Part shown: positions 7,801 through 49,304 of the stretch, piece by piece | Layout of the letters: each line of letters begins with the position of its first letter | Position numbering within the stretch: position 1 is the first letter of the stretch | Virus record (IMG/VR): IMGVR_UViG_3300013099_000003 | Coordinates: 1 to 57,585 of that record | Length of the DNA: 57,585 nt | Direction: 5' to 3' (one strand) | Source: a virus | Made by a program: the position numbers and the translations under genes | The notes under the pieces: generated by a model | The model's database searches: none | What the model was told of the DNA's origin: nothing | The model's input: the letters and a program-made list of their open reading frames with translations, nothing else

Positions 7801-8202
7801 CTTCAGATGCTCTTCATGAGCAAGTATACACTGGAGAAGGGGATGACCTCAGATAGTGTTGTAAAGACTCTGATGGCTAACCTACTGCCTCCAGTGAGGT
7901 ATGCAGACTCTTTCATAGCTGATGTCTATTCCTTAGCTAGTAGTGAGAAGGAGTTCAAGGCTAAGACCCTTAGTTCCGTACCTATGATTGGTACTATTGC
8001 TTACGGTAGATCTAGTGCTGGGCAAAGTACCTATGCAAATCAAGAGAAGCAGAGTATCCTTGATGAAGTGAAGAAGAATAGGAAGAAGGGCAAGGGTGCC
8101 TACAGTGGGAACCTAAGTAAGAAGATAAGGAAGTATAACAAGGGGAAGGCTAAGGAAGACCGTATCACTTCTGATAGTGTCTCTAGAGCCTTTAGGGGAT
8201 AA
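1897..8202 (+). CDS. giant internal virion / ejection protein (2101 aa) carrying an HExxH motif
   Basis: Uninterrupted 6.3-kb ORF with SD aggagag upstream. It lies at the end of the internal-protein gene string, the position T7 gp16 analogues occupy. HEVVH is encoded at 5539-5553. Confidence 0.8.
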   Translation: MGYFSEDFNGFNTEPQDSISMASARSEAHVAERGTTMDILHDLWAGTGEAFKLIGEGTGFDKMKSAGEYIGSTEFAKPDTSQYYGTQDRLGRVVDGIFQAAPLTLGLAGTTAVGALAGPVGAGMALTAGLSAVGKGTFDISLEEIQKERPELSSKEQFDYALINAVSEVGSEGLGFLLPFGIGKLAGKAGSKAVLKALVDSGKMTSKQAIGSVVKEVGAKNVMTGLFGGAVADGASEVGNELVQAANREAYGMEGEKADLIDLFLIGSAPGGIIAGGTMAMDQGVKSKVQKSLEAGLQSESFGTRQATVDTITSALSQIHPDVGSAFKQDLGQKALVGPVSLQEPVRTQESVVETEILNKPEEVLAEVGIPTKADPLGTAEGMDRADLEDTTLDYSQTQEGFLPDELTALELENQKSLETQETVDSFMKNAERSVIPIQKRVVTTDAKGNQVETMVDGTIAETSVPLYDALILDNARSQAIKEGMEAVLVDANKLSMMADLDGREKLQKSIAKRQKQINSEVQEHVKETEVVVPTEQGTVEGIAEVVSEEEVKVEPKTPEVIAKEVLEDTVVPEEVLAEQPVEPVEAPPQLVEEEVIPEVIEEPVGRVEEAYISPETDVPMDEEQSTLAMEWMDKDIPADDAILLAKRATPVSDGPVEVEEYRDGKKYTGSRFTDGSTIEVGRSTKGKQFKVSKDGKVYRAGSRKAAREGIEGKRELELWEDKVREKAAEKTREKLSDKQKTEIDEFIVANSESAEGPKQYTEAYQKVTKGMKMDDKMGMFAMALGDVAQGPKELTAGNIREKMQSLAKAEENTTDTAKIADEGGNVAMVSTDTLFESQEKAAQSEQMTETQDEDVASESSMEGTKEEDESTLATTEDPTQYTQEDKGKYTLKKIWYTISGKKVAKNKKGSDAVERLETPDGRYEVVLAPREKGEPAKVLLLRNGENAGPAFNNPDEAMEFAKMSDEYDLSPDAGSLKDSMTPIDTTMERDNPDVFHERFKAWGHNMARVHKASREITNIIKKEGATPENIKALRDIKELRSEIMAQRDLVMGSVLRDSSALDTIGEVDDILKAANAGRYNNELGTEDYSLEGEAIANQWRKQDARQLGIVRLLDMENRSPANEDALQSLLRERDEFEVDAANLKAKFPDGLSLLESVANEVSSGKVEKSLAKMLLANVPHEKLKALQVVMGHKNSHKDGLITLRKDVLHTTRLHEVVHGITVAEMAGNKELNDKVTKLRREVRDYASKKNFLSPADITALKALETSEDFVQSEFSIKNKVGQRAYGLLNNKEFLSMAFANPEFQSMLKGIKVTEKRSLWDKLVDFIGNALGLKKGEYNMLSEVLTLGTEIAQAKRTKKTLTEEMEADFPVDTEKATAEVMAGKGPKAKMVTGLKEQLKNIKNLAEHVAKPVSDMLLELSPKLHGNLMKFESKLIRKQKEYSTKADPFMRWYKSLSESEQTRYDFALFNSNTKQNQEIIKEIPKEAYAPMKEILDDLRKRQEEVGLGGTQKDFYFPRRVDDVVGLMDHLLKDEEMKGPIGYAMNQEAKRLGVSVLTEDQKAQVVTDMLQAGHFRQLPRPGASKQRTIPFVTAETKGFYSNASESLLGHIFEMNEKIGQREFIGGSTRKADIQTLMTKFKAIEGMEEGIPRELAMAEYDAMAGKLEDLEGDLSNRLGSLISEEMGTRSGEDQQAVTDLINARLRQKGAHGVMDAVRNVGYIATMGNFLSALTQLGDIPILFYAHGINTDSMGAVKDAFSDVFKIAKRELTGKGGPTGAFVEEADFTNQLREFSQGKITNEWVEKAFKYSGLKFTDLIGKEAFMKAAHRKYQRAGEKEGFMKKYEPFFGKDTENVWDEMQTGKKTNDVMTVLISELSEFQPVTLSQQSKGYLGAGNMRMLYMLKTFTLRATSAAMREGAKEMKKGNYAKGAMKVSSILMIYAAAGAGADELKDLIRGKDSTFTDNTMDNLLQMLFMSKYTLEKGMTSDSVVKTLMANLLPPVRYADSFIADVYSLASSEKEFKAKTLSSVPMIGTIAYGRSSAGQSTYANQEKQSILDEVKKNRKKGKGAYSGNLSKKIRKYNKGKAKEDRITSDSVSRAFRG

Positions 8203-8299: not shown

Positions 8300-8866
8300 A
8301 TGAAAGGAAGTAAAGTACTTGTAGTAATCCTTCTGGCAGTCAGTATGGCCCTAATGGGCTGTGCTACCCAGAATACAGTGGACATGGTTGGTGACTATAC
8401 TGAAGCCTACAGTAAGCATCGGGTAGAGAGTACTAAGGCTGTCACCAGTAAGGCTAAGGCTATATCAGAGATGATGAAGTTTGAATGTGAGGAAGACACT
8501 GAAGCTTGTGGTGTTGCTAAGGCACTCAGCAACGTTATAGCCTCACAGGAGATTGCTAGGATACAACCGGATCCATTTGAGATGAAGATGCCAAAGACTG
8601 AGCTGGATGTCCAGAGTCAAGTCTTGACGACTATAGGTAATGGGATTCCCTTCATTACCATGGGTGTAGTCTCTTATAAAAGTATAGCTGAGGACAGAGG
8701 TGAGACCACTAATACTGCAGGTGGAGATATCTCTACGAACTATGATGAAGATCATGCGACTGCTATTGGTGATAAGTCTAGCAGCTCTAATAGCCCTACC
8801 AACAGTGAGCTTGTCATGCCAACAGAGGAACTTGATGGAGCAGAAGGTGGAACAGAGGATAAGTAA
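8300..8866 (+). CDS. putative lipoprotein (188 aa)
   Basis: Starts at Met42 of tracked ORF 8177..8866. MKGSKVLVVILLAVSMALMGC is a signal peptide plus a lipobox-like LMGC. The tracked upstream start lies inside the giant CDS. Confidence 0.6.
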   Translation: MKGSKVLVVILLAVSMALMGCATQNTVDMVGDYTEAYSKHRVESTKAVTSKAKAISEMMKFECEEDTEACGVAKALSNVIASQEIARIQPDPFEMKMPKTELDVQSQVLTTIGNGIPFITMGVVSYKSIAEDRGETTNTAGGDISTNYDEDHATAIGDKSSSSNSPTNSELVMPTEELDGAEGGTEDK

Positions 8867-9356
8867 GGATATAGAGACAGTAGTCTTTAGTCATGCTGAT
8901 CGGCTTGGCATTCCTAGGGAAGTAGCCCTAGAGAATGCCATGAAGTTTGCTGAGACCGTAGGGATCATGGAAAACAGTGGTAAGCTAGTGGGCTTCAATA
9001 AGCCCCAAGCAGGTAAGCCTAAGTCTAGTGCTAAGGGTCTCTACCAGTTTCTAGATGGTTCAGTAGGGCCAGCTAAGGTTCGTCTTGGGAGGCATACGGA
9101 GGTTGGAGAGATTCCTGATGATCCTAATGAGATGAGCTGGGATCAACAGACTTCCTTATTCCTAGCTGATGTACTTGAGAAGACTGCCGTAGTGAATGGA
9201 GAGAAGAAGCCGGGGTTAGGTGATGAGCTGATGAAGAAGGTACTGCAGGATGCTAATGATACAGCAGCAGTCCGGGATGCTTACTATATCCTTCATCATA
9301 CGAAGCCTGATGAGAGGACTAAGGCAATGGCCGAAGGGGTAACAGATGGAACCTAA
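8835..9356 (+). CDS. lytic transglycosylase-like (SLT-type) protein
   Basis: IMENSG (candidate catalytic Glu-Ser) followed by AKGLYQF resembles the SLT E-S...GLMQ motifs. Start chosen at the ATG with SD agaggaa; upstream in-frame ATGs at 8742/8754 are possible alternatives. Confidence 0.5.
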   Translation: MEQKVEQRISKDIETVVFSHADRLGIPREVALENAMKFAETVGIMENSGKLVGFNKPQAGKPKSSAKGLYQFLDGSVGPAKVRLGRHTEVGEIPDDPNEMSWDQQTSLFLADVLEKTAVVNGEKKPGLGDELMKKVLQDANDTAAVRDAYYILHHTKPDERTKAMAEGVTDGT

Positions 9357-9730: not shown

Positions 9731-10057
9731 ATGCAGAGTATACCAGATTGCGGCTCCAATACCTGTCAGTACCATGTGCTCACTGAGTCTGTCATTAAGG
9801 ATCTCAAGAGAGCCGTAGAGAAACTGATGGAAGGACAAGACCAGATGAGAGAGACAGTGATACACCTGACAGAAGCCTTCAAGGCTATGGAACGCATTAA
9901 TCATAGAATGGAACAGATGGAAGATTTACAGAGGGAGAAGGATAAGGAGCAGGATACTAAGATAGATGAACTGAAGGCCTTCATGTATAAGTCCATAGGA
10001 TTAGTAGCATCCCTTGGAGTTCTAGGTGGGGTAGTCCTGAAGATGGTGGGGATATAA
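9731..10057 (+). CDS. coiled-coil protein with C-terminal transmembrane anchor
   Basis: Charged heptad-like middle region. C-terminus SIGLVASLGVLGGVVLKMVGI is hydrophobic. Confidence 0.6.
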   Translation: MQSIPDCGSNTCQYHVLTESVIKDLKRAVEKLMEGQDQMRETVIHLTEAFKAMERINHRMEQMEDLQREKDKEQDTKIDELKAFMYKSIGLVASLGVLGGVVLKMVGI

Positions 10058-10058
10058 T

Positions 10059-11399
10059 ATGGGAATTAAGTATGGGAGGCCAATGCCGGGTAATACCATT
10101 AGTCTCTCCGAGACTACCATGGAGACTATTGCATCTGATTCAGTATACATAGCTGATATATGGGTGGAGGAAAGTACATGGGTTGGATGGGAGGATCTGG
10201 ATGCTACCGGGAAGGCAGTCATCTTAGTACCCTTCAATGGATTACATACGAGGATTCAGAATGATGAAGTGACGAGTCCTAAGACCTTACTTGTCCACTT
10301 CGGTAGAACCGTGAGTGCACACCAAGTAGGTATTGGAGCATTCACAGGGGACTTCAGTAATCTGAAGGTAACTCTGCTGGGTTCTGGTGGAGTCTCTAGG
10401 ACACTGCTAGATGAGTCAGGGAATAGTACGAAATACAGTAGTAGAAACTATGAGTTTGCTCCGGAACTATTCAATGCTCTTAAGTTAGAATTCTATACAA
10501 CTGATACAGTAACTGTAAGTAATATAACGATTCAGAAGAGCATCAATGTAACCAGCCAGATCAAGGCAGCTACTCCTGATGGAACCTTAGTGGACATAGG
10601 GGCATCCGAGAGTGGGAACCTTAAGATCACGGATGCCGAGAGTGGCTTAGCTATAAGTAAGGGAGTCGTAATCGGTAGTACCTTTATACATAAGTTTGGG
10701 GCAGCTCCCGACTTTGATACATCAGATGGAGTTGTAACTGTATGGGATGGTGCCGATGATAGTCACCTGAACCAGATGAGGTACGTATATAGTACAGGAG
10801 CTGATATAGATACTATCTCCTCGGAGAGCATAGCAGATACACAGGAGCTGAAGCTACAAGGTCTGGATCTTTCAGGTGCTTTAGTGGAGCAGACGGTTAC
10901 TCTACAGGGTCAGACTAAAGTTACCTTAGATACACCCTTATACCGTATCTTCCGAATGAAGAACAATGGGACTGTAGACAATGTAGGTCACATCTACTGC
11001 TATGAGGATACGGCTACAACCTTAGGTAAACCAACAGATACAACTAAGGTTAGGGCTGTGATACAACCCGGGAACAACCAGACCTTAATGGCAGTCTATA
11101 CAATTCCAGCAGGGAAGACAGGATACATGAGGGATTGGTATGCAGCCACGGCAGGGGCATCCAAGAGTACTAACTATATTATCCAACTGAGAGCTAGAGA
11201 ACCCGGTAAGGTATTCCAACTGAAGCATGTGTCTGCTTTGGCTGATTCGGGGAGCTCCCATATTCAACATGATTACAGTGAGCCTGAGAAGTTTGCTGCG
11301 GGGGTTGACATAGAGATGAGAGTAGAGATGACAGCAGGGGGTGCATCTGGTGCAGCCTTTGCAGCAGGGTTTGATATAGTCCTAGTAGATGATGTGTAA
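10059..11399 (+). CDS. hypothetical structural protein, 446 aa
   Basis: ORF track; tight packing within the structural block. Confidence 0.7.
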   Translation: MGIKYGRPMPGNTISLSETTMETIASDSVYIADIWVEESTWVGWEDLDATGKAVILVPFNGLHTRIQNDEVTSPKTLLVHFGRTVSAHQVGIGAFTGDFSNLKVTLLGSGGVSRTLLDESGNSTKYSSRNYEFAPELFNALKLEFYTTDTVTVSNITIQKSINVTSQIKAATPDGTLVDIGASESGNLKITDAESGLAISKGVVIGSTFIHKFGAAPDFDTSDGVVTVWDGADDSHLNQMRYVYSTGADIDTISSESIADTQELKLQGLDLSGALVEQTVTLQGQTKVTLDTPLYRIFRMKNNGTVDNVGHIYCYEDTATTLGKPTDTTKVRAVIQPGNNQTLMAVYTIPAGKTGYMRDWYAATAGASKSTNYIIQLRAREPGKVFQLKHVSALADSGSSHIQHDYSEPEKFAAGVDIEMRVEMTAGGASGAAFAAGFDIVLVDDV

Positions 11400-14296: not shown

Positions 14297-14326
14297 AAGG
14301 CCCTATAGAATTAACTATAGGGCCTT
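14297..14326. terminator. bidirectional stem-loop terminator between the convergent blocks
   Basis: aaggccctatag (14297-14308) / aattaa loop / ctatagggcctt (14315-14326): a 12-bp perfect stem with short T/A runs on both sides. Confidence 0.6.
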
Positions 14327-14330
14327 TGCT

Positions 14331-14342
14331 GTCTCTAGAGAC
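14331..14342. repeat. GTCTCTAGAGAC palindrome copy (intergenic, 4 nt after the terminator stem)
   Basis: Exact 12-mer read directly. Confidence 0.95.
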
Positions 14343-15162: not shown

Positions 15163-16771
15163 TTCCTGTTCGTCCCTTAGCTTCTGTGTAGCTAACCCTT
15201 TCGAGGGGCTGACCTCCTCTGGAGCCATCGGGGTAACAGGTGAATCCTCTAAGTCTTGGGGCAAACTCTGCCAAGACTTCGGCAAATGGCTGAACACTGT
15301 CCTCACAATTCCCATCGGTTCCCCATGCTGGAAGGTTAATAGTTGAACTGATAGCATGATCAACGAAGTCCTGCATGTCAGCTTGGAACTCTATACGTCT
15401 CTTCGGCTCCTTAGCTAAATCTACTGCCGTCTCTATGCTCTCCGGGTCTAGGTTGTGCTTCTGTATGAGACCCTCTGCTGTACTATCTATGACGTACTCG
15501 TACTTCCAATCAGTCCCATCCACCAGATACCTTCTCTTATAGGCAACCGAATAGAGTGGCTCGATTCCCGTAGTTGTTCCAGCAAGGATACCAATAGTTC
15601 CTGTTGGGGCAATAGCTCGGTAGCCCTTAGGACGGTTAAGATAGAGTCTATCGCAATGTTCATTTGCTGATCTTTCGGATTCCTCTTCGTAGGCATACAT
15701 CCACTCCTTCAGCTCATCGTTCATTCCATACTTGTAGCCCCGCTTCAGTAACCATTCATGGACACCCATGAGGCCTACACCTATCCTCCGATTCTCCTCC
15801 CGTACTTGCTCCACTTTCTTATAAGGGAGATCTGCACGGACTGAACCACATACGAGGAACTTAGCTCCCAAGGATACTACCTCACGGAATTCCTCTATAG
15901 TCTCCACGTTAGCCATATTGACTGCACCTAGATTACAGCAGTCACTGTCATCCTCACTGGTAATCTCACAACAGGCATTCCTCAATGTCTCTAGAGACTT
16001 CCTTCCGAAGTTAAAGGAGAACCCGGGCTCACCAGTTCTCATAGCATTCATTACGTTATGCAGATAGATATCAGGTAGCACCCCATCATCCACTCTCTCT
16101 AGGAAGCTGTCGTCGTAGTTCAGAGATATGTTTGTCATATCTAAGGGAGCACGAAAGTTAAAGTCGGCTCTCTTCAGATCACCATAGGTCAGCCCCTTCC
16201 TTATCTCCATGGCATCCCAATCCTTAGCATTGATCCAATCCCAAGCATCATCATGAGACCACAACAGGGAGCCGTATATGGCACTCCTACGGCTTCCACC
16301 CTGCATTACGTTCTGCCCTATACCATTCACTAGTTCGGCCAGTGAGAGGGGCCCTGAGGCTACTCCTCCGGTTCTCCTGATTGGTCTCCCCTTCCCTCTT
16401 AGTATGCTGTAGTCTACGCCTATGCCACCACCCGTCATCAAGCAGCTCGTACTCCTTTGTGCTAATGCTGCCCACTCCTCTCTAGTATCCTCTTCAGCCT
16501 TCAGGCAGAAACAGTTATTGAAGAAGTGGGCATTCCTCCCAGCATAATAGATGTACCGTCCACCGGGCATCCACTTCATCTGAGTCATGAGGGATACTAG
16601 CTCTGACTGATCAGACTGAGAGAGTAGTCTCCTTCTTCTACCATTCATCTCACCTACTACATCCTCAGCTATAGTCCTACATCTCTCTGGCCACGTATCT
16701 GTCTGAGTCAGGGCATACTTATTGTAAAAAACATTACGGGCAATGACGTTTCTAAAGTTATGTTCAATCAT
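15104..16771 (-). CDS. ribonucleotide reductase, probably class II (adenosylcobalamin-dependent) type
   Basis: NACCEI...CCNLGAVNM (active-site N-x-C-x-E and downstream Cys), GGGIGVDYS, APTGTIGILAGTTTGIEP, and a C-terminal Cys pair. The class is inferred: no NrdB gene is present and there is no glycyl-radical C-terminus. Confidence 0.8.
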   Translation of the reverse strand: MIEHNFRNVIARNVFYNKYALTQTDTWPERCRTIAEDVVGEMNGRRRRLLSQSDQSELVSLMTQMKWMPGGRYIYYAGRNAHFFNNCFCLKAEEDTREEWAALAQRSTSCLMTGGGIGVDYSILRGKGRPIRRTGGVASGPLSLAELVNGIGQNVMQGGSRRSAIYGSLLWSHDDAWDWINAKDWDAMEIRKGLTYGDLKRADFNFRAPLDMTNISLNYDDSFLERVDDGVLPDIYLHNVMNAMRTGEPGFSFNFGRKSLETLRNACCEITSEDDSDCCNLGAVNMANVETIEEFREVVSLGAKFLVCGSVRADLPYKKVEQVREENRRIGVGLMGVHEWLLKRGYKYGMNDELKEWMYAYEEESERSANEHCDRLYLNRPKGYRAIAPTGTIGILAGTTTGIEPLYSVAYKRRYLVDGTDWKYEYVIDSTAEGLIQKHNLDPESIETAVDLAKEPKRRIEFQADMQDFVDHAISSTINLPAWGTDGNCEDSVQPFAEVLAEFAPRLRGFTCYPDGSRGGQPLERVSYTEAKGRTGNVYTESHDVCEITGGGSCG

Positions 16772-17492: not shown

Positions 17493-17740
17493 AATAAGGA
17501 CTCCAGATCCTTCAAGGCCCTGTCAGCTAAGTCTCTCTGAATGGAGTGGATTACGTGCCTAGTAATTGCCATAGCTAATGGTGGATCTTCAGAGAATGAC
17601 CTATCTAATTTAATGAGACACTCTCGATCCTTAACCACTAACTTCAGGACATCTGAGCCACCCTGCTTACCTAGAGAGGCCACAGCATCATCATGACCTG
17701 TAGCCCTCTCTATACATCTTAACATCTCATTGGTAATCAT
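17489..17740 (-). CDS. hypothetical protein, 83 aa
   Basis: ORF track; 4-nt overlaps at both ends. Confidence 0.6.
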   Translation of the reverse strand: MITNEMLRCIERATGHDDAVASLGKQGGSDVLKLVVKDRECLIKLDRSFSEDPPLAMAITRHVIHSIQRDLADRALKDLESLL

Positions 17741-17982
17741 AAGATCTCATCCAGAATCTTACATGCCTTCATCAACTTCTTAGAAGAGGAGAACTTCAGA
17801 TAGGTATAATCTGTTGTACTGTCCAAGTACAGCTCTAAAGAGAATACCATCTTATCCTTCTCAGGCTTCCTCTTACCACTCTTCCAGTCTCTTCCCTTCT
17901 CCTTATGAGATGTCATCTTGTATCCAATGATGAAATCATCACGAACCTTCAGTACACCACGGTTATGTTCTAAGACTACCAT
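17737..17982 (-). CDS. hypothetical protein, 81 aa
   Basis: ORF track. Confidence 0.6.
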   Translation of the reverse strand: MVVLEHNRGVLKVRDDFIIGYKMTSHKEKGRDWKSGKRKPEKDKMVFSLELYLDSTTDYTYLKFSSSKKLMKACKILDEIL

Positions 17983-18113
17983 ACTAATTTCCTCCCGATC
18001 TTATGATTACAGATTGGACAACAAAGGATTGCTGGTACATCCTTCCCTAATCCCTTCCAATACTTAAAGGTACTTCTCCAATACTCTATACACTCTGGAC
18101 ACCTGAAGCTCAT
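17976..18113 (-). CDS. zinc-ribbon mini-protein, 45 aa (below the ORF-track cutoff)
   Basis: My own translation: MSFRCPECIEYWRSTFKYWKGLGKDVPAILCCPICNHKIGRKLVW. SD gagg lies about 8 nt upstream and the stop overlaps the next start. Confidence 0.5.
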   Translation of the reverse strand: MSFRCPECIEYWRSTFKYWKGLGKDVPAILCCPICNHKIGRKLVW

Positions 18114-18148
18114 ACCTACTGCCTCGGCCTCCCAATCCTCTTCCTTAC

Positions 18149-18388
18149 TCAATAGATTTTCCTCCCGGCCTTGAAGTTTTCCTGATCTCCATAGTGAGTA
18201 CTGTATCCATCTTCAGCCCACCCTACATCTCCTTCCTTACCTAGCCGGAACCCTCCCTTATTTCCTATAGACTTCTGTAGTACACCACCACAGCCCGGGC
18301 AGTCATGCCTCGTATCCCTCTGCTCCACTGTATGCTGGTGCTCTTCTTCATGGCCACAGCTCCTACACTGATAACTGTATATTGGCAT
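18149..18388 (-). CDS. FmdB-family zinc-ribbon protein
   Basis: MPIYSYQCRSCGHEEE...CPGCGG is the classic FmdB N-terminus. The start is moved to this Met, which removes the overlap with the upstream gene. Confidence 0.65.
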   Translation of the reverse strand: MPIYSYQCRSCGHEEEHQHTVEQRDTRHDCPGCGGVLQKSIGNKGGFRLGKEGDVGWAEDGYSTHYGDQENFKAGRKIY

Positions 18389-19559: not shown

Positions 19560-19973
19560 TTATTTCCCTGTTGAGCCATACCCATTATCTCCTCTCTCTG
19601 TTCTTCTCAGTTCTTCTACTTCCTCAAAGGTGTGGTGGTTAACACTTACGAATACTATCTGAGCTATCCAATCACCATCCTCAATACGGATGAAGTGCTC
19701 AGGATCATTATTGTAGAGTGTCACATAGATCTCTCCGATGTAATCAGAATCTATCCTACCATATGCTTGTATGCCCTGCTTGGTATTCATCCCGGATCTA
19801 TGAGAGATAGTCCCGGCTTCCCCTCGTGGTACTTCCATATGGATTCCTGTTGGAACCTTAGCATGGCAACCCGGTCTAATGATTAGGGTCTTGGTACTCG
19901 CAAGATCATAACCACATGATCCCTTGGTAGCATGTCGTGGCCTCTTAGCACCCGGCTTAACTATTATCTTCAT
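19560..19973 (-). CDS. dut: dUTP diphosphatase
   Basis: GSCGYDL, RSGMNTKQG, IDSDYIGE, ERGDNGYGSTGK; ATGA overlap with the upstream stop. Confidence 0.9.
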   Translation of the reverse strand: MKIIVKPGAKRPRHATKGSCGYDLASTKTLIIRPGCHAKVPTGIHMEVPRGEAGTISHRSGMNTKQGIQAYGRIDSDYIGEIYVTLYNNDPEHFIRIEDGDWIAQIVFVSVNHHTFEEVEELRRTERGDNGYGSTGK

Positions 19974-20239
19974 ACGATCTCCCAATCATCAGCTAACAGA
20001 TCTGACTGAGATGCTACCCACATCTGGAAGGAACCATCAACACATCTTAGTTGTAGATAAGGTTGTACTGCTACAAGATCTCCATCATGCAACCCATGGA
20101 CTGCTCTCGTCTGCTTGTTAGCTATGATCCCATCAGGGTATCCGGGCTGATAAGCTACATACATTCCCCTCCCATTCCATCCTGCCCTAGCAACGTGGCA
20201 GCCACCCTTAGCCATTTCTATAGCTTCACTTATATCCAT
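19970..20239 (-). CDS. DUF2829-family protein (the family that includes the Thoeris anti-defence protein Tad2)
   Basis: MDISEAIEMAKGGCHVARAGWNGRGMYV...SQSDLLADDWEIV matches the DUF2829 pattern (EA...K.G..V.R.GWNGKG ... D.LAEDW). Confidence 0.65.
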   Translation of the reverse strand: MDISEAIEMAKGGCHVARAGWNGRGMYVAYQPGYPDGIIANKQTRAVHGLHDGDLVAVQPYLQLRCVDGSFQMWVASQSDLLADDWEIV

Positions 20240-24770: not shown

Positions 24771-24937
24771 CTCTGGTTAAGACCACAGCCACCCATAGAT
24801 ACCATACCACATACCTCAAGATCCTCATGGATACACCCCTTACATGCTTCCTCATCTTTAGGTACATCCACTAAGATGTACCCCTCTCTAGTACCAACGA
24901 ACTTCTCCATCCTCTCTACCTTCTCACCCTTATTCAT
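24755..24937 (-). CDS. hypothetical Cys-containing protein, 60 aa
   Basis: ORF track. Confidence 0.55.
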   Translation of the reverse strand: MNKGEKVERMEKFVGTREGYILVDVPKDEEACKGCIHEDLEVCGMVSMGGCGLNQRWEKE

Positions 24938-25412
24938 ACTTAACCCTCACCTTTAGTAATAGTTTAGAGGCTCTCTGTCTACTGATACCTACCTCAACTG
25001 CTGCCTCAGATTGGGTATAGCCTTGCATCATACACCCAATGAGGTCTCTCGTAGTTCCTTCCTCACCCTCCAGCATCCTCTCCATATCCAGTCGAGCATC
25101 TACTGCTGCCTCATGACTCTCATGGGAAGCCTCAAGGTATACGGCATGATCCCTCATGCCATTCATATTGTATTCCTTCAGTACTACTCTCTGGATATAG
25201 TGTTGCAATCTTCCGAGGATTCTTCCGTACAGGTAGGTACTTAAGGAAGCTCCCCTCTTTCCATCATACTTATCTATGTCCTCCGTTATGATCAGCCATG
25301 CTTGTGATTCAAGATCATCCCACTCTACATTAGGGTACTGTTTGTATAACCTAGCTACAACACCACTAATTAACCTCTCATAATCTTTATGTCTCAATGT
25401 GTGTCTCCCCAA
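24930..25412 (-). CDS. sigma-70-family (ECF-sized) RNA polymerase sigma factor
   Basis: Region 2-like DDLESQAWLIITEDIDKYD...YLYGRI and region 4 HTH YTQSEAAVEVGISRQRASKLL. Confidence 0.75.
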   Translation of the reverse strand: MGRHTLRHKDYERLISGVVARLYKQYPNVEWDDLESQAWLIITEDIDKYDGKRGASLSTYLYGRILGRLQHYIQRVVLKEYNMNGMRDHAVYLEASHESHEAAVDARLDMERMLEGEEGTTRDLIGCMMQGYTQSEAAVEVGISRQRASKLLLKVRVKYE

Positions 25413-30582: not shown

Positions 30583-30745
30583 TCTTCTCCTCCGTCCACT
30601 CTGATTCATGATCATCACCCATATCCCAAGGACATCTATCCGGGATATCTACTGATCGGTTATTAGTTAGCTTAACTACAAGGTAGCACTCATCCCCGGC
30701 ACAGTCCCTATAGCATCTAAAGACCTGTACCTCTTCCTTACTCAT
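30575..30745 (-). CDS. Cys-containing mini-protein, 56 aa (below the ORF-track cutoff)
   Basis: My own translation: MSKEEVQVFRCYRDCAGDECYLVVKLTNNRSVDIPDRCPWDMGDDHESEWTEEKNE. ATGA overlap with the upstream gene. Confidence 0.5.
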   Translation of the reverse strand: MSKEEVQVFRCYRDCAGDECYLVVKLTNNRSVDIPDRCPWDMGDDHESEWTEEKNE

Positions 30746-30942
30746 ATCAATTCTCCCCCTCGTTTACAATCAGGGCACACCATGTAATAGTGGGTATACT
30801 CAGGGCCTACATGAACAGGATGCTTCTTCAGTGCTACGATGGAAGTCTCTAGAGACATATCTTCCCTAGCTACCAACTCATTACAGATGAAGCAGATGGG
30901 TGTCACTCGATCTAGTATGTCCTTCTTCTTTTCCTCTCTCAT
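30742..30942 (-). CDS. zinc-ribbon protein, 66 aa
   Basis: CFICNE ... CPDCKRG. Confidence 0.6.
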   Translation of the reverse strand: MREEKKKDILDRVTPICFICNELVAREDMSLETSIVALKKHPVHVGPEYTHYYMVCPDCKRGGELI

Positions 30943-37865: not shown

Positions 37866-38034
37866 GGTACTCACCACAGGTATGCTTCCGACCTACATAT
37901 TGCTTTAAGTTCCGGCAGTAAGAGGGCTTATTTGTGTGGTATTTACAGGTTGCACAAGGCTTCTTAGGTGCCTTGAAGGTACTACTCTCTGCTCTCCATC
38001 CGGCTTCCTCTTTCTTCATCTCTTTAGTCTTCAT
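37855..38034 (-). CDS. basic Cys-containing mini-protein, 59 aa (below the ORF-track cutoff)
   Basis: My own translation: MKTKEMKKEEAGWRAESSTFKAPKKPCATCKYHTNKPSYCRNLKQYVGRKHTCGEYHGC. ATGA overlap with the upstream gene. Confidence 0.5.
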   Translation of the reverse strand: MKTKEMKKEEAGWRAESSTFKAPKKPCATCKYHTNKPSYCRNLKQYVGRKHTCGEYHGC

Positions 38035-38393
38035 ATGTGCTCTCCCGGCTTAGTAAAGGTTACATTCTTCTCACTCCATTCCTTAGATTCCTTCAGTCCC
38101 CATCCAGTAGCATCACGGACTGCCTTGATCACCTTGATCTTATTCAGTGCATAATCAGCTACTCCATATGCTGCCGCCTTAGCTAGTGTCTCTGGAGACA
38201 GAGGCAATATCCTCAGGTCATCATACCTCTCTATAGCATCAGCCATAGTCCGGAAGTGATCTCCACAGGTCAGGAGGAGAGCCTTATTGGTATCCTCCAC
38301 ATTTATCAGATCATCCTCACATTTCTGGAGGATTACAGCTATACTCTCATGGAATCCCCTTGCATTTATCCTCCGGCCACCATAGATATTCAT
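38031..38393 (-). CDS. protein with a ribosomal L7/L12 C-terminal-domain-like segment
   Basis: NKIKVIKAVRDATGWGLKESKEW compared with E. coli bL12 [23 protein letters not shown]. Start trimmed to an ATGA overlap. Confidence 0.6.
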   Translation of the reverse strand: MNIYGGRRINARGFHESIAVILQKCEDDLINVEDTNKALLLTCGDHFRTMADAIERYDDLRILPLSPETLAKAAAYGVADYALNKIKVIKAVRDATGWGLKESKEWSEKNVTFTKPGEHI

Positions 38394-38758
38394 ATGGAGA
38401 TACCACATCGAGCTACGGCAAGGAGCTGTTGATCTTCAGTATAATACTCAGCTTGTACCTTGATGCCAAACTCAGCCAGTATCTTGAACTTAGGATTCTT
38501 ACAGACTGTTTCCGTGACTACCTTATCCGCTTCCTCAGGATTATCACTGAAGATCGTGGCTACTATCCCATTGTCAACCTTATAGACAAAGTATGCAGTA
38601 TTATCCTTGCATCCAGCAGTGATGAAGGTAGTGATCTCATCTATACGGATGCCGGGTTCCATCTTTGAGAGACTCTCATTCAACTCCTGACATGGTGTAG
38701 AGAGGGCTGGTGTCGCTAGAGACAGCAAGAGTGCTGTCGTAAGTATACTTTTATACAT
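38390..38758 (-). CDS. secreted protein, 122 aa
   Basis: Signal peptide MYKSILTTALLLSLATPALSTP. Confidence 0.65.
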   Translation of the reverse strand: MYKSILTTALLLSLATPALSTPCQELNESLSKMEPGIRIDEITTFITAGCKDNTAYFVYKVDNGIVATIFSDNPEEADKVVTETVCKNPKFKILAEFGIKVQAEYYTEDQQLLAVARCGISI

Positions 38759-38876: not shown

Positions 38877-39233
38877 TCATTCTCCTATGAAGTACATAAA
38901 AGGAGTGCCTACTTTGCTGAAGTCCTTACTTCTGTGAACTTCACCACATCTCATCCATCTCTTTATCCTACCTTCGGATACCTTAGAACCAAGACCATCT
39001 CGAAGCTCCTCAAGGGTCGGACGAAACTTCGCAATGTATGCGAGGATATCATCCTTCGCAATAGTGAGTCTCGAACAGTCTCTAGAGACATCACTTGTGG
39101 TATCATCGGAGATCTCCTCCGGATTCACCATCTTATCAAATCCATCCATGATATGTGGGAAGTCTCTCAGTACAACTTCCGGAATTGAATCTACTGCATT
39201 AATTATGTTACGTAACTCACTGATACTGGGCAT
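38877..39233 (-). CDS. hypothetical protein, 118 aa (possible DNA-binding protein)
   Basis: Trimmed to MPSISELRN with SD ggaggtaaag; first gene after the 39.27-39.48 kb palindrome cluster. Confidence 0.6.
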   Translation of the reverse strand: MPSISELRNIINAVDSIPEVVLRDFPHIMDGFDKMVNPEEISDDTTSDVSRDCSRLTIAKDDILAYIAKFRPTLEELRDGLGSKVSEGRIKRWMRCGEVHRSKDFSKVGTPFMYFIGE

Positions 39234-39273
39234 TTCTTTACCTCCATCTGGCATAATTGCCGACTTCTTCGGT

Positions 39274-39285
39274 GTCTCTAGAGAC
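39274..39285. repeat. GTCTCTAGAGAC palindrome copy (intergenic)
   Basis: Exact 12-mer. Confidence 0.95.
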
Positions 39286-39424
39286 TTAGAGGATGCGGAG
39301 TCTAGGGATATACCCTAATGTCAGTACCTTAGGACTAAACTTTAACTTCCCAGAAGGGAGAGCGAGTCCCGCTATTGCCTAACATCTATTCCGTATTGGA
39401 CATGCTCCATTGTACCTCATAAGT

Positions 39425-39460
39425 GTCTCTAGAGACTCTCTTTGGAAAGTCTCTAGAGAC
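39425..39460. repeat. two GTCTCTAGAGAC copies separated by 12 nt (39425-39436 and 39449-39460)
   Basis: Exact 12-mers read directly. Confidence 0.95.
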
Positions 39461-39481
39461 ACCTAGGAAATCCTAGGTGTC
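39458..39481 (-). terminator. 10-bp stem-loop just downstream of the 243-aa gene, sharing 3 nt with a palindrome copy
   Basis: gacacctagg / aaat / cctaggtgtc. Confidence 0.5.
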
Positions 39482-39489
39482 AGTGGTAT

Positions 39490-40221
39490 CTATGCGAAAT
39501 GCTTAGTGGCCATTTTCAGGAGATCTGCTTGAACATCGGCTTTCTCTGTATCATCGGCAATATCCAGCAGGGAGCCGAGCTGAGCAATGAGATCTCTCAT
39601 TTCTACGGTAATATCAAGGTTATTCACACAGATGGCTGTGGTGAGCTTATGGGCTTCGAGAATATCCGCCTGCTCAGTCATCTTATCCGCAGCAGTCTGC
39701 AATCCCTCACAATGCCTTCGGACGGCCTCAATAGGAACTTCCTCAGTCGTACATCTCTTCAGCAAATCACACCTTGCACCTACCTTGAACTGCTCAGGAT
39801 AGAGAGAAGAGGAGAGACCGAAGCTCAGGATCTTTGCGATAGTTCCGGCATAATCCCACATCCGTCTTGTCTCTGCCCAGCTACTCCATTGAACCTTTCC
39901 GTCTTTCACGATATCGAAGGAAGCACCCTGACGATTCTTCCCTGTGAGTGGTAAGGTGTCCAGTTCAGCATGGATATGGTTAGCGAGTACACCTTTCAGG
40001 TAGGTACCGTTCTTCTTTATGGATTCCTTAGAGGTATCCATCTCAATCTGGGTGAGATCCACACGTTCCATCAGTATGGAGACAGTTTGGTCCCAGACTA
40101 TCGAATCATTCTTCTTTACGGTTCTTCCAGCAGTCGTACTTTTATCACTTGCTTTCATCGCAGCTACTACGTCTTCACCTTTAATGATGCTGTAGGTTAT
40201 GTCGTCACTTTTCTTACTCAT
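39490..40221 (-). CDS. hypothetical early protein, 243 aa
   Basis: ORF track; isolated gene bracketed by palindrome copies. Confidence 0.7.
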   Translation of the reverse strand: MSKKSDDITYSIIKGEDVVAAMKASDKSTTAGRTVKKNDSIVWDQTVSILMERVDLTQIEMDTSKESIKKNGTYLKGVLANHIHAELDTLPLTGKNRQGASFDIVKDGKVQWSSWAETRRMWDYAGTIAKILSFGLSSSLYPEQFKVGARCDLLKRCTTEEVPIEAVRRHCEGLQTAADKMTEQADILEAHKLTTAICVNNLDITVEMRDLIAQLGSLLDIADDTEKADVQADLLKMATKHFA

Positions 40222-40370
40222 AATAATACCCCTTTGTTCTGGTTTAGGTAAAATCCCCGGTTATCCGGTGTCTCTAGAGACTTCAGATAGCCTGAAGCCT
40301 TAATTTCAGCATTCTTCCGCCTAGATTGGGCAGCCTGTACATCCGATCTCTTGATACGGATAATAGTCAC
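40218..40370 (-). CDS. basic mini-protein, 50 aa, GTG start (below the ORF-track cutoff)
   Basis: SD gaggagg lies 6 nt before GTG 40370. My own translation: (M)TIIRIKRSDVQAAQSRRKNAEIKASGYLKSLETPDNRGFYLNQNKGVLL. The stop forms an ATGA overlap with the 243-aa gene. It contains the palindrome copy at 40270-40281 in the SLET frame. Confidence 0.5.
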   Translation of the reverse strand: MTIIRIKRSDVQAAQSRRKNAEIKASGYLKSLETPDNRGFYLNQNKGVLL

Positions 40371-40710
40371 AGTACACCTCCTCTAAGTTTATGTAGAACA
40401 GCCACACTAATCCATTGTTTTCCATAGTTACTATCATATTACCACCTCTCAGTTCTTGTATATACCCAGTGTACTACCATAAGTATAAGATTTACGATTC
40501 TCTCTTGCATAATTCCTCCAAGGTTATAGGTTAAGGAATGCTCAGGTTAGTGCTACGGTTCCTGAGCAGACCTTAATCGGTATCCTCATTGCTATTATGT
40601 GCTCCATGCAGCTATAGTTCACCCTCAGGCAGCCTGTCGTATCCCAGCTAGGATATCCTCCGCATTCTTAAGTCGGAATTCAGGTAATCAGGTGCTATAA
40701 TCAATCGGTT

Positions 40711-40722
40711 GTCTCTAGAGAC
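40711..40722. repeat. GTCTCTAGAGAC palindrome copy (ORF-poor region)
   Basis: Exact 12-mer. Confidence 0.95.
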
Positions 40723-41276
40723 TCCGAATAATCAGTATGGACTCTTCATTGGGAGGCCCATTTGCTCCCATCACTACACTTGTTTATCGTGCCAAGTTCA
40801 CCTTAAGATATTTAGTACCCCTCTCAGTCGGGTGTAGACGTTCGGCTAGGTTTCCTAAGGGTTGCCCCTTTATCCCAACCTTTCCCGGGAGATCGTACTC
40901 CGGAAGGTCGTCAATGCTCTCTATTCAAGCCCATTTGGGTGATTCCCGTTCCCTATAGTTCCGGATTCCTAGCGGTATCTTGTAGACTACCCTTTCAGCG
41001 TATCCTATGATTCTTTCGACTCTCCCGTAAGCTCTCCGAGGTTTCCGTTGGCTACTCTCTTGAGAGAATCTTCTATCCCTCTGGCGAGTGGCCATCCGCC
41101 TCAGTGAACCCCTTTCAGGTCTCGCTGTCCGACTTGCTCTGTCAGGTTGGCTTGCGTATTTATTGTTTTTAGGTGCTCCTTTTAGATTGCCATGTTTTCC
41201 TTGTGGTGTCTAGTGTTTATCTTGTCGAGGTCTCTACTTCCCTCAATAGTTTACTCTTTGGCACCCTTTTGTCTGT

Positions 41277-41288
41277 GTCTCTAGAGAC
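41277..41288. repeat. GTCTCTAGAGAC palindrome copy (ORF-poor region)
   Basis: Exact 12-mer. Confidence 0.95.
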
Positions 41289-41563
41289 TTAGCCCAGATC
41301 GAAGTAGGTACCCCGGAGTCATCTCAGGATTGGAATCCGGCTGAGCCATGGAGGCCCCCGGGGAGTGGAGGTAGCCCCTCCGTATCTTGTAGCCATTTCT
41401 GAGAATAAGTACCTGCTCCATCCCTCTGCTACACCTTCCAGAAATACCTATGCACAAACCTTGCACACTTCGCACAAGCAGGAGAATGAACCCCATCCCT
41501 GACATTAAGCACCAATAAAGAGCCTAGGAATACTATAGGAATCTCCATGACTTAGACTAGGGG

Positions 41564-41592
41564 TTGACAAAAGGGCTTCGAGATGGTATAAC
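41564..41592 (+). promoter_or_regulatory. sigma-70-type promoter in front of the plus-strand (packaging/structural) block
   Basis: ggggTTGACA (41564-41569), 17-nt spacer ending TGg, then TATAAC (41587-41592). Confidence 0.65.
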
Positions 41593-41671
41593 TACATAAG
41601 AGCAAGAGACTTAAAGGTGGGAATCTAAAAGATCCGGGGGAACCTAGGGTCTTTCTTTAGGTCTAACCTAT

Positions 41672-41748
41672 CTACTTATACTTTACTACTTATACTTAGG
41701 TAATACTATAAAGGAATATATAAAGGAATAACCTAAGGCTAACCTAGG
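41672..41748 (+). repeat. cluster of short direct repeats in the AT-rich leader
   Basis: tacttatactt at 41673-41683 and 41687-41697; tataaaggaata in perfect tandem at 41707-41718 and 41719-41730; taacctaagg at 41729 and taacctagg at 41740. Confidence 0.85.
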
Positions 41749-41759
41749 AGGACTAAAGA

Positions 41760-42557
41760 TTGTCTGAAGTTATCGTAAGAAAACCTAAGCCACCCTTAAC
41801 AGATCAAGAGAAGTACCAAGTAATACTAAAGTACTCTGAAGGTGTTCCAGTTACTCAGATAGCCTCTGAAGTCTCTAGAGACATAGGGATTATAAATAAG
41901 CTAATCAGTAAGACCCACAATGGCATGACGGCAGTAAAGGAAACCAATGCACTTCTCCAAGCTACCCATAAGGGAGCCGTAACACAGTACTACGGGAAGA
42001 ACCCATCCAAGTTCATAACGACTGCCTTCCTAGCCGAGATAGATACCTTGGCTGAGATCTATGCTTACTACTTTGCCCAGACAGGGGACAATAGATTTGC
42101 CCTCATACAAAGTGGGATGGATATGGGAATCCCTAAGAACATGCGTAAGAATACCAAGGACTACGTATATAAGATCCGTGGTCAATTCCTCAGAGATATC
42201 CCACAGGTCAAGGATATCATAAAGCTAGTCCACGATAAGAGGATCAAGGAATATCATATAGAGAAGCCCCAGATCCAGATGGAACTGGTAGCCCAGATAG
42301 AGGAACTGAAGGAAGCAGTAAAGGATGATCCTAAACAACGGGTGAACCTCTTGAGAGCTGTAGAGATGCTAGGCCGTACAATCGGATCCTTCACGGACAG
42401 AGTACAAGTTGAGGAGGTTGATGCTAAGAGTGGCTTAGAGATTCTTATGGAGAGAGCTAAAGGAGAAGCTAAATTGACGTATGTCCCCGAGGAGGAGCAT
42501 GGCGAAGAAGACTCAGAAGCAGAAGCTCCTGGAGACTGCCCAGATATATTACAATGA
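41760..42557 (+). CDS. small-terminase-like protein with HTH (TTG start)
   Basis: SD aggagg lies 8 nt before TTG. HTH-like GVPVTQIASEVSRDIGIINKLI. Immediately upstream of the large terminase. Confidence 0.5.
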   Translation: MSEVIVRKPKPPLTDQEKYQVILKYSEGVPVTQIASEVSRDIGIINKLISKTHNGMTAVKETNALLQATHKGAVTQYYGKNPSKFITTAFLAEIDTLAEIYAYYFAQTGDNRFALIQSGMDMGIPKNMRKNTKDYVYKIRGQFLRDIPQVKDIIKLVHDKRIKEYHIEKPQIQMELVAQIEELKEAVKDDPKQRVNLLRAVEMLGRTIGSFTDRVQVEEVDAKSGLEILMERAKGEAKLTYVPEEEHGEEDSEAEAPGDCPDILQ

Positions 42558-48936: not shown

Positions 48937-48974
48937 TGTCTCTAGAGACATCTTAATTGGTGTCTCTAGAGACA
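48937..48974. repeat. two 14-bp extended palindromes TGTCTCTAGAGACA (48937-48950 and 48961-48974), 10 nt apart
   Basis: Read directly. Confidence 0.95.
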
Positions 48975-48976
48975 AT

Positions 48977-49056
48977 CTTACTGATCGGAAGATACACCCT
49001 TAGAATCGTGTCGAGTAACTTCGGCTCGGAGTCAAGTGTATCTTCCGATCAGTAAG
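48977..49056 (+). terminator. long hairpin with a 21-bp perfect stem, followed by a T-rich tract
   Basis: cttactgatcggaagatacac (48977-48997) pairs with gtgtatcttccgatcagtaag (49036-49056). The loop is 38 nt; gtatcttttgtatcttctttg follows. Confidence 0.6.
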
Positions 49057-49229
49057 GTATCTTTTGTATCTTCTTTGCCCTTATAGCTCAGATCCCACTG
49101 AATAATCTAGATGTAGGAAAGAGATAGTAAGGAAGGAGCACTCCCATAGATTAGGGGAGAGGTCGGGAGAACTAGGGAAAATCCCTTAGGGCCAAGAGGA
49201 TACAAGTAGGAAGGATGACAGAGAATTAA

Positions 49230-49304
49230 TGCGGAGTATTTCAGAGGTAGAAAACCAGCCTCATAAGCTGGAAGTCGTGGGTTCGAGTCCCTCCTCCGCT
49301 CCCA
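49230..49304 (+). tRNA. tRNA with anticodon CAT (Met, or Ile if lysidine-modified), CCA encoded
   Basis: Hand-folded. Acceptor TGCGGAG/CTCCGCT (1:72 T-T mismatch). D arm TTTC-AGAGGTA-GAAA. Anticodon arm CCAGC-CTCATAA-GCTGG. Variable loop AAGTC. T arm GTGGG-TTCGAGT-CCCTC (one mismatch). Discriminator C, then CCA. Confidence 0.75.

Follow-up and report, generated by a model that had tools for sequence, protein, structure and literature searches.

To our knowledge, dispersed sites of a single sequence that organise a replicon are known from only a few systems, namely the stoperators, the KorB operators, and the matS, NBS and SBS sites. The KorB operators (O_B) of RK2 and the parS sites of ParB are palindromes of 13-16 bp, of which about a dozen or more copies lie over a replicon of 60 kb, partly at promoters and partly remote from them or inside genes. 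MatP-matS, Noc-NBS, SlmA-SBS and RacA-ram each join a dimeric protein to a 13-16-bp palindrome that occurs in coding and non-coding DNA of one replicon domain. The stoperators are asymmetric and -35-like, are oriented with transcription, and are read by the helix-turn-helix (HTH) immunity repressor of a temperate phage. Among the cluster A mycobacteriophages that carry stoperators (L5, D29), the lytic D29 has retained them, and they are thought to act on elongating RNA polymerase; RacA is among the systems cited in the same paper (PMC12266134). In the present study, we analysed the IMG/VR record IMGVR_UViG_3300013099_000003 over its positions 1 to 57,585 (57,585 nucleotides, hereafter the window), an uncultivated phage genome that encodes a T7-like replication module and a sigma factor. 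A preliminary description of this DNA had pointed to one intergenic island, between the genes for a 118-amino-acid (aa) and a 243-aa protein, in which copies of the palindrome GTCTCTAGAGAC are crowded. Here we describe that island together with the palindrome itself, which is dispersed over the whole genome.

The window holds 27 exact and seven one-mismatch copies of GTCTCTAGAGAC; this total of 34 compares with 0.53 expected and was reached in none of 100 shuffles. Eighteen of the 27 exact copies lie inside open reading frames (ORFs), where they are read only as V-S-R-D or x-S-L-E-T, and the frame with an internal TAG is never used. Non-coding DNA is still enriched, as it makes up about 10% of the genome and holds nine of the 27 copies (P=0.001). 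Of the 54 half-sites of the exact copies, 53 are flanked by A or T, and nothing is conserved further out; because these flanks are almost always A/T, the site is a 14-mer, with the dyad consensus W-GTCTC-YR-GAGAC-W over 14 bp. The early/replication block on the minus strand (14300-39100) carries 14 exact copies with a mean gap of 1.9 kb, at 14331, 15987, 19394, 21308, 23472, 25919, 29502, 30845, 32546, 34626, 35650, 36685, 37774 and 39078, and all but the one at 14331 are inside ORFs. Their spacing within 14.3-39.1 kb is more even than random (coefficient of variation 0.42, P=0.001). In addition, the density of the motif is 0.69 per kb in the early/replication arm vs 0.23 per kb in the structural arm, with a peak at about 39-42 kb.

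The copies arise in place, by codon choice and not by insertion. The K-SLET copy in the gene for ribonucleotide reductase (RNR) falls in a loop of no greater length than that of the solved Thermotoga homologue, and the V-S-R-D copy in PolA overlaps an R-x-x-x-K...YG segment, which we take to be motif B of the family A polymerases. A further copy (41871-41882) lies inside the TerS-like gene (41760-42557), in the segment that codes for the N-terminal HTH, and this site is orthologous in three lineages. With the same codons, it reads V-S-R-D around a TA centre in the window and in its relative L023, and V-S-G-D around a CG centre in the relative L002. On these grounds a mobile-element origin of the copies was rejected, and scanning the window ORFs against Pfam and PHROGs gave no transposase. 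A general role as promoter element was rejected as well, since the flanks of 60 half-sites share no -10 or -35 element; a sigma70 scan of 38.7-42.1 kb stayed at chance level. Two copies do occupy repressor-like positions beside -10-like hexamers, which is not general.

The GTCTC-YR-GAGAC core is shared by at least ten lineages related to the window, with centres and flanks of their own (among them the loci L023, L030, L024, L025, L035, L034, L040, L067 and L072). The nearest one is L023, with a 243-aa homologue of 87% identity and the same TA-centred 12-mer in 10 copies over 6.4 kb. The homologue is 44% identical in L024, which has CA centres, 40% in L040, where GTCTCTAGAGAC occurs 13 times in 18 kb, and 35% in L035, where TA, TG and CA centres are mixed. 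L034, whose TerL is 75% identical, has the core TCTCTAGAGA 16 times with C or G as the outer base and gaps of about 1 kb. L002 and L030, which are parts of one contig, are of CG type (TGTCTC-CG-GAGACA, often within GTG...CAC), with a site every 1-2 kb. The distant family member L067 has one arm changed (GTCTC-TA-GCGAC, eight copies in 3.3 kb), and L072, in which the marker protein is matched only at E ~2e-8, has (A)GGGTCTC-TA/CA-GAGACCC(T) 10 times in 11 kb. Every centre seen is a pyrimidine-purine step. Even spacing was found elsewhere too, in L040 (P=0.0004), in L034 (P=0.026) and, at about 0.055, in L030 and L035. The sister lineage L076 (major capsid protein 50% and PolA 36% identical) has no GTCTC-type site; it carries GTCGA-N3-TCGAC 15 times in 20 kb, at a pitch of about 1 kb and in both orientations. 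Records of these lineages are IMGVR_UViG_3300031741_000018 for the CG type, 3300014206_000030 for the S type, Logan SRR31660261 for the GGG type and 3300027985_000156 for the GTCGA type. Private dispersed motifs were not found in L005, L013, L026 and others, most of these loci covering structural genes only, and the negative-control scans of IMG/VR with the family alignments were not exhaustive, one of them having missed known members. The sole CA-centred site of the CG-type genome sits at the invariant V-S-R-D of the CobT-like protein; it stays CA because, with the arginine invariant, only the synonymous half of the switch from TA to CG is possible. Read together, the TerS-like and CobT-like sites indicate a directional, in-place evolution.

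The island lies between the 118-aa gene (38877-39233, minus strand), which is downstream of it and holds a copy of its own at 39078 (V-S-R-D), and the 243-aa gene (39490-40221, minus strand). The elements that the preliminary description had reported there were all borne out at their coordinates. Exact copies of GTCTCTAGAGAC stand at 39274-39285, 39425-39436 and 39449-39460; the last two are 12 nt apart (24-bp pitch), and the third runs into a stem-loop, GACACCTAGG/aaat/CCTAGGTGTC at 39458-39481, with a 10-bp stem whose first three nucleotides, GAC (39458-39460), are also the last three of the copy. A further exact copy at 40270-40281 is 48 nt upstream of the 243-aa start codon, and the island is indeed the densest cluster of the motif in the genome. 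Eight exact copies lie within 39.0-41.9 kb. The gap had been given as 235 nt, which holds only if the 118-aa ORF starts at the upstream ATG (39254); with the start at 39233, which has a GGAGG ribosome-binding site and agrees with the 118-aa product in the protein database, it measures 256 nt. Three copies in this 256-bp gap compare with 0.39 expected at the motif's own non-coding density (P=0.007). The 243-aa gene had also been called isolated. This is not the case, because the copy at 40270 sits in a conserved 50-aa ORF (40218-40370), and the stop of this ORF and the start codon of the 243-aa gene overlap; short stems flank the copy on both sides.

The first island copy is 40 nt upstream of the 118-aa gene start and abuts a short stem (CCGA cttct TCGG), and there is no copy at the aligned position of L023. 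At the second copy, L023 agrees with the window in every base over the 37 nt GTCTCTAGAGACACTTATGAGGTACAATGGAGCAT (minus strand). The second and third copies form an inverted repeat (39423-39462), which would give a perfect stem of 14-15 bp with a loop of 10-12 nt in the minus-strand transcript. The fused stem-loop lies 8 nt past the 243-aa stop codon on the minus strand. It is of terminator type, G+C-rich and directly downstream of a gene, and is followed on its 3' side by UCUCUAGAGACUUUCC, without the U-tract of an intrinsic terminator. The RNA of the island folds with z = -4.0. Aligned with its counterpart in L023, the island is an indel hot spot with breakpoints at the motif copies. An additional cassette of about 350 bp is present in L023; it includes a 47-aa ORF and is bounded by the 21-bp direct repeat GTCTCTAGAGACACTTATGAG. 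The fused hairpin of the window corresponds in L023 to two inverted motif+ACCTAGG units about 90 nt apart, and the doublet spacer is 33 nt instead of 12 nt.

A strong stem-loop right after the orthologous 243-aa gene was found in eight of nine lineages, with sequences that are non-homologous between lineages. Besides the window, such unrelated hairpins follow the gene in L023, L034 (two hairpins), L035, L040, L024, L025 and L031, and only in L030 is the hairpin weak. In L040 it is a canonical hairpin with a U-tract (CTAGGGTTTTGCTT), and a motif copy overlaps the stop codon. Furthermore, all three strong intergenic hairpins of the window that are not made of the motif abut a motif copy; only 6% of random positions are within 60 nt of one. 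Between the convergent blocks, a hairpin with a perfect 12-bp stem (14297-14326) has the copy 14331-14342 4 nt away. Behind the capsid genes, on the plus strand, a second doublet (48938-48973, copies at 48938 and 48962) repeats the 24-bp pitch and forms a 16-bp stem; it is directly followed by a 23-bp stem with a U-rich tail (48975-49058; -92 kcal/mol, z = -10.4). The second doublet and this stem make up a putative late-operon terminator cluster. A single tRNA-Met (CAT) gene is at 49230-49304 on the plus strand, just 3' of this cluster.

Any two copies of the motif are mutually complementary. In the three doublets examined (two in the window and one in L023), the complementarity runs past the 12-mers, so that stems of 13-20 bp result, the longest one (20 bp) in L023. 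A single copy can form a stem of only 4-5 bp. The W...W flanks of single copies are mostly non-complementary (t,t 12 times, a,a seven times, t,a seven times), the outer S positions of L034 vary independently in the two half-sites, and asymmetric centres as well as the one-arm variant of L067 are tolerated. For the single copies, this evidence favours a site in duplex DNA that would be read by a symmetric dimer. An identical doublet was not found in IMG/VR. A generalised doublet occurs there only in L027 (IMGVR_UViG_2911330653_000003), an unrelated GC-rich prophage that serves as a comparison and is not a relative; three copies of CGTCTCTAGAGACG lie within 115 bp (1297-1410) at the 5' end of a 146-aa gene without Pfam domain, an integrase gene adjoins, and the same 12-mer forms a local operator-like cluster in that prophage.

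On the observed anatomy of the island, the copy statistics, the conservation of the motif with its lineage-specific drift, and its coupling to hairpins we base the following reading, which we prefer while giving it somewhat less than an even chance. A dimeric, sequence-specific protein would bind the site and act on transcription of the early arm, joining with hairpins at operon ends, and the island would be a reinforced boundary of the first operon. The gene layout of the window places the island at the start of the leftward, presumably early, arm, after the first two or three genes; it would mark the 3' boundary of the first leftward operon, that of the 50-aa and 243-aa genes, which are presumably immediate-early. 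The strong stem-loop right behind the stop codon would be the backbone of the island, and the three dyad sites would be placed upon it. Each copy may be bound by a dimer of one and the same protein, which is probably phage-encoded, and the bound protein could serve along the early arm as a roadblock, an insulator or a shut-off device. At operon ends the site would be coupled to terminator hairpins, and a tandem pair would in addition provide an RNA stem of 13-16 bp. The island would then separate the first operon from the early genes downstream of it, in the manner of a reinforced terminator or insulator, and possibly the protein on the downstream copy supplies the pause that a hairpin without U-tract needs.

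The preliminary description had seen in the island a cluster of operators or insulators around a single gene. The operator half of this proposal is not supported, as the 27 exact copies are genome-wide with 18 of them in ORFs, the even spacing over about 25 kb of early/replication genes speaks otherwise, and for about 800 nt around the orthologous gene the CG-type relative is free of copies. The insulator-like half is supported by the hairpins behind the orthologous gene in most lineages and from the motif copies that abut the strong intergenic hairpins of the window. Several observations weigh against the reading that we prefer. Scans of essentially all window ORFs against Pfam and PHROGs found no HTH domain of repressor type, no ribbon-helix-helix (RHH) domain and no ParB domain. 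The terminator scan did not call the island hairpin, which has no U-tract. Since the CG-type lineage has no copies beside the orthologous gene, the coupling of motif and hairpin is frequent and not obligatory. Roadblock-type regulation has no obvious need for an even intragenic spacing of 1-2 kb. Finally, the relatives were gathered by protein-guided searches and are all metagenomic contigs.

The next question is which protein would read the site. An unlikely proposal is that the 243-aa protein, alone or with the 50-aa protein, is the reader, the local copies being autoregulatory operators and the dispersed copies further targets. The 243-aa protein is an orphan, the last gene product of the first leftward operon and the marker family of the motif-bearing clade. 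An exhaustive profile search gave 68 representatives of the family, all uncharacterised, which conserve K-W-S-S-W-x-x-T-(R/K), R97, K130 and R150. The hidden Markov model of the family matches every dyad-motif locus that covers the head of the early arm, including L072 (E 4e-48) and L076 with its different motif (E 1e-43). It finds no member in L013, L019 and L020, which cover the syntenic position and are motif-free as well, nor in L026 and L036. This co-occurrence of family and dyad motif is real, and it is confounded by common descent. The 50-aa protein is very basic (isoelectric point (pI) 10.4) and starts with GTG behind AGGAGG (40218-40370, minus strand). Its gene holds the 40270 copy, read as K-SLET, and its homologues in L023, L025, L034 and L040 always hold one or two copies, at different, non-orthologous codons. 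The family conserves a C-terminal F-Y/F-L/I-N-Q-N-K/R-G, and the AlphaFold2 model (single sequence, low confidence) consists of one basic helix at residues 8-30. Against the proposal, the searches detected no DNA-binding domain or fold in the 243-aa protein: neither the single sequence nor a 48-sequence profile gave a Pfam, PHROG or PDB match. The AlphaFold2 model is of moderate quality (pLDDT 68.5) and largely helical, apart from a single beta-hairpin, the C-terminal part being a helical bundle; it has no Foldseek match in PDB or BFVD. The protein is mildly acidic (pI 5.6), the two genes are not adjacent in L040, no copy lies near the gene in L030, and the core motif is unchanged while the protein drops to about 20% identity. 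The 118-aa protein had also been considered as reader and is excluded, being a singleton without homologue even in the motif-carrying relatives. Other proteins conserved over the clade are a 66-aa zinc ribbon with four cysteines (30742-30942), the sigma-like protein (24930-25412) and the TerS-like HTH protein. A host protein, either nucleoid-associated or a regulator, would be a very improbable reader, with the centres and flanks reflecting different hosts or a pressure that the host exerts on CTAG by mutation or restriction. The domain scans detected no classical phage-encoded DNA-binding regulator, no clade-specific phage protein is as well conserved as the core, and the TA, CA/TG and CG centres are linked by single transitions; very-short-patch repair of E. 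coli converts CTAG to CCAG/CTGG. Yet no regulon-like pattern emerged when 185,579 species genomes were scanned for the doublet, all that turned up being unrelated tandem arrays of local extent, and the sister lineage L076, with another dyad at the same pitch, makes a co-evolving phage-encoded reader the easier explanation. The arrays include those in L050, L051 and L054 (three contigs of the Lewinellaceae metagenome-assembled genome HK-STAS-BACT-43, Bacteroidota), where tandem units of 21/42 nt contain ACGTCTCTGGAGACGT; they are unrelated to the phage.

It is rather improbable that the elements act in RNA only, the hairpin and the doublet stems as terminators, as processing sites of RNase III type or as 3' stabilisers, with single copies being weak hairpins or functionless. 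Such a role would suit the doublets, whose stems of 13-16 bp (20 bp in L023) pair beyond the 12-mers and stand at operon ends beside strong hairpins, and it would suit the extension of the palindrome to 16-18 bp in L072 and L030. It does not suit the single copies with their short stems, mostly non-complementary W flanks and outer positions without covariation in L034; the 18 evenly spaced intragenic copies are not explained by a function at RNA 3' ends, and the sites of L076, with a T-run before and an A-run after, are the reverse of a terminator. A replication role, which we consider quite improbable, would make the 39-42 kb cluster by the adjoining ORF-free region an origin with iteron-like sites, while the dispersed copies would, irrespective of their orientation, prime synthesis or control forks through the gp4-like primase-helicase. 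Okazaki fragments are about 1-2 kb long, which the even pitch resembles. GTC is the recognition triplet of T7 primase, with GGGTC and GTGTC as preferred sites; the outer GTC...GAC are the only bases common to both motif classes, and the lineage flanks yield GGGTC in L072 and GTGTC in L030 and L067. The window encodes a T7-like replication module, and GTC/GAC is mildly depleted (observed/expected 0.73 genome-wide, among the most depleted trinucleotides, behind GCG/CGC and AAA/TTT). This explanation is weakened because about 1,200 GTC sites remain and a palindrome of 12-18 bp is not needed for priming. Furthermore, it leaves the three-fold lower density in the structural arm unexplained, the GTC would be base-paired if the hairpin formed, and no initiator protein was identified. 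Only a faint chance is given to packaging signals (pac/TerS) or to Chi-like guards against exonucleases that enter at a genome end near the terminase genes. A conserved copy does lie in the TerS-like gene, the densest cluster adjoins the terminase genes, and the density declines with distance along the early arm. Chi sequences are asymmetric and 5-8 nt long; the sites described here are dyad-symmetric over 12-18 bp, orientation-free and spread over 25 kb at an even pitch. Several pac sites would break up a headful series, and a circular assembly does not fix the genome ends.

It is possible, although we regard it as doubtful, that the clade of sigma-encoding T7-like phages has a system of genome punctuation, composed of a dyad that is written in the codons of essential genes of the early/replication arm, at an even pitch of 1-2 kb, and of a co-evolving reader from the orphan 243-aa family, possibly with the 50-aa protein. 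Under the same doubtful proposal, the arm would be split into units, for transcriptional shut-off and insulation or for replication and compaction, and the fusion with hairpins would yield protein-assisted terminators.

Concerning the genome as a whole, the first 123 bp of the window reappear at its end, so that the assembly is circular and complete at 57,462 bp. The plus strand, from about 41.7 kb across the window origin to 14.3 kb, encodes terminase, portal, major head protein and tail proteins. The minus-strand block of 14.3-40.4 kb encodes RNR, dUTPase, EndoVII, GIY-YIG, RusA, FEN, a gp2.5-like SSB, ligase, a gp4-like primase-helicase, PolA, CobS/CobT-like proteins, a radical-SAM protein and a small protein of the sigma-70 family. 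A phage RNA polymerase, an integrase, a repressor and ParB were not found in the Pfam and PHROGs scans. In blastn the window has no nucleotide similarity to isolated phages, and its TerL is at most 32% identical to that of any isolate. About 1.2 kb without ORFs (40440-41560) separate the divergent transcription units; this stretch shows patchy conservation with L023 and contains motif copies at 40711 and 41277, the former immediately preceded by TGCTATAAT. This region may be an origin or encode a non-coding RNA. The sole Rfam match of the window at the gathering threshold is the tRNA, and 39200-41800 gave nothing credible at E<=1. A rightward sigma70-like promoter, TTGACA-N17-TATAAC, is found at 41565-41593 and is kept in L023.

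Several other genes of the window and its relatives deserve mention. An 89-aa ORF (19970-20239, minus strand) matches the Pfam Tad2-like domain (Thoeris anti-defence 2) with E 2.4e-22. A 125-aa early protein (38031-38408, minus strand) has a segment like the C-terminal domain of ribosomal L7/L12 (E 4e-7, above the Pfam cut-off) and a weak homologue in L030. In the structural module, a 2101-aa protein (1897-8202, plus strand) without Pfam or PHROG match may, by its position, be an internal virion or ejection protein. The major head gene of L002 (8835-10798) is apparently split by about 900 bp, tblastn giving the pieces 8835-9098 and 10001-10798, and the interruption could represent an intron, an intein or the insertion of a homing endonuclease. 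The primase-helicase of L034 is in two pieces about 960 bp apart (15712-16728 and 17692-18369), with perhaps an intervening element between them, and an EndoVII-like gene (15315-15695) lies just upstream. In L076, the 243-aa family member that heads the early arm holds a tandem 9-nt repeat in its gene, GAACCTTCC, of about 10 units (9734-9830). The more distant relative L005 has an EndoVII-like gene (1102-1533) between its TerS-like and TerL genes.

The genome-wide phenomenon is more interesting than the island, which is in itself of moderate interest, and for annotation it teaches that what stands out as an operator cluster at one locus can be the most conspicuous part of an element spread over the genome. 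What distinguishes the palindrome is the combination of a perfect dyad, of which two thirds of the copies are coding, even over conserved catalytic residues, with an even spacing in several independent genomes and a concerted drift within each lineage, while a sister lineage has another dyad at the same pitch. This combination implies a strong, uncharacterised constraint on phage genomes plus a reader, and the lineages offer a natural co-variation series for finding the reader and its specificity code.

Overall, a literature search by phrase gave nothing beyond the context of stoperators and D29. The stoperators are similar in that dozens of copies of one 12-14-bp site are dispersed over about 50 kb of phage genome, some between transcription units and others inside them. 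The present site differs from them in being a dyad without orientation, mostly intragenic and evenly spaced, in a genome whose domain scans gave no repressor and no integrase. Its variants with asymmetric centres occur in both orientations (window and L035), and the one-arm variant of L067 is weakly orientation-biased. Like the KorB and ParB systems, the phages have palindromic sites of similar length (13-16 bp there), several per replicon; unlike them, the window gave no match to the ParB-family CTPase required there, as ParBc was not detected in its scanned ORFs, and an even spacing of 1-2 kb is not a feature of O_B or parS. The chromosomal organisers are cellular; their sites lie tens of kb from one another and their readers are known (RHH, ParB-like, TetR, MerR-like). 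The site of the window is on the scale of a phage genome, with a pitch of about 1-2 kb, and homologues of such readers were not detected. The hairpins resemble intrinsic terminators and the intercistronic hairpins of T7 type, such as T-phi and the RNase III sites, in that strong stem-loops follow the first operon and the capsid genes and separate the convergent blocks, and the positions of T7 TE and T-phi run parallel to them. They are unlike these terminators in that the island hairpin has no U-tract and in that they are fused to, or built from, a motif that is also found singly in genes. The REP and BIME elements are imperfect palindromes of 20-40 nt, strictly extragenic, RAYT-associated and often paired at operon 3' ends, where they can stabilise mRNA and bind proteins. 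Repeated palindromic units at operon 3' ends, often in pairs, are common to both, but two thirds of the copies described here are intragenic and are not insertions, and the scans gave no transposase. Chi and the DNA-uptake words are short (5-10 nt), asymmetric and biased, unlike a dyad of 12-18 bp without orientation. Among the known dispersed sites, the palindrome of these phages is therefore unusual in its coding placement, its even spacing, its concerted drift by lineage and its fusion with terminator hairpins.

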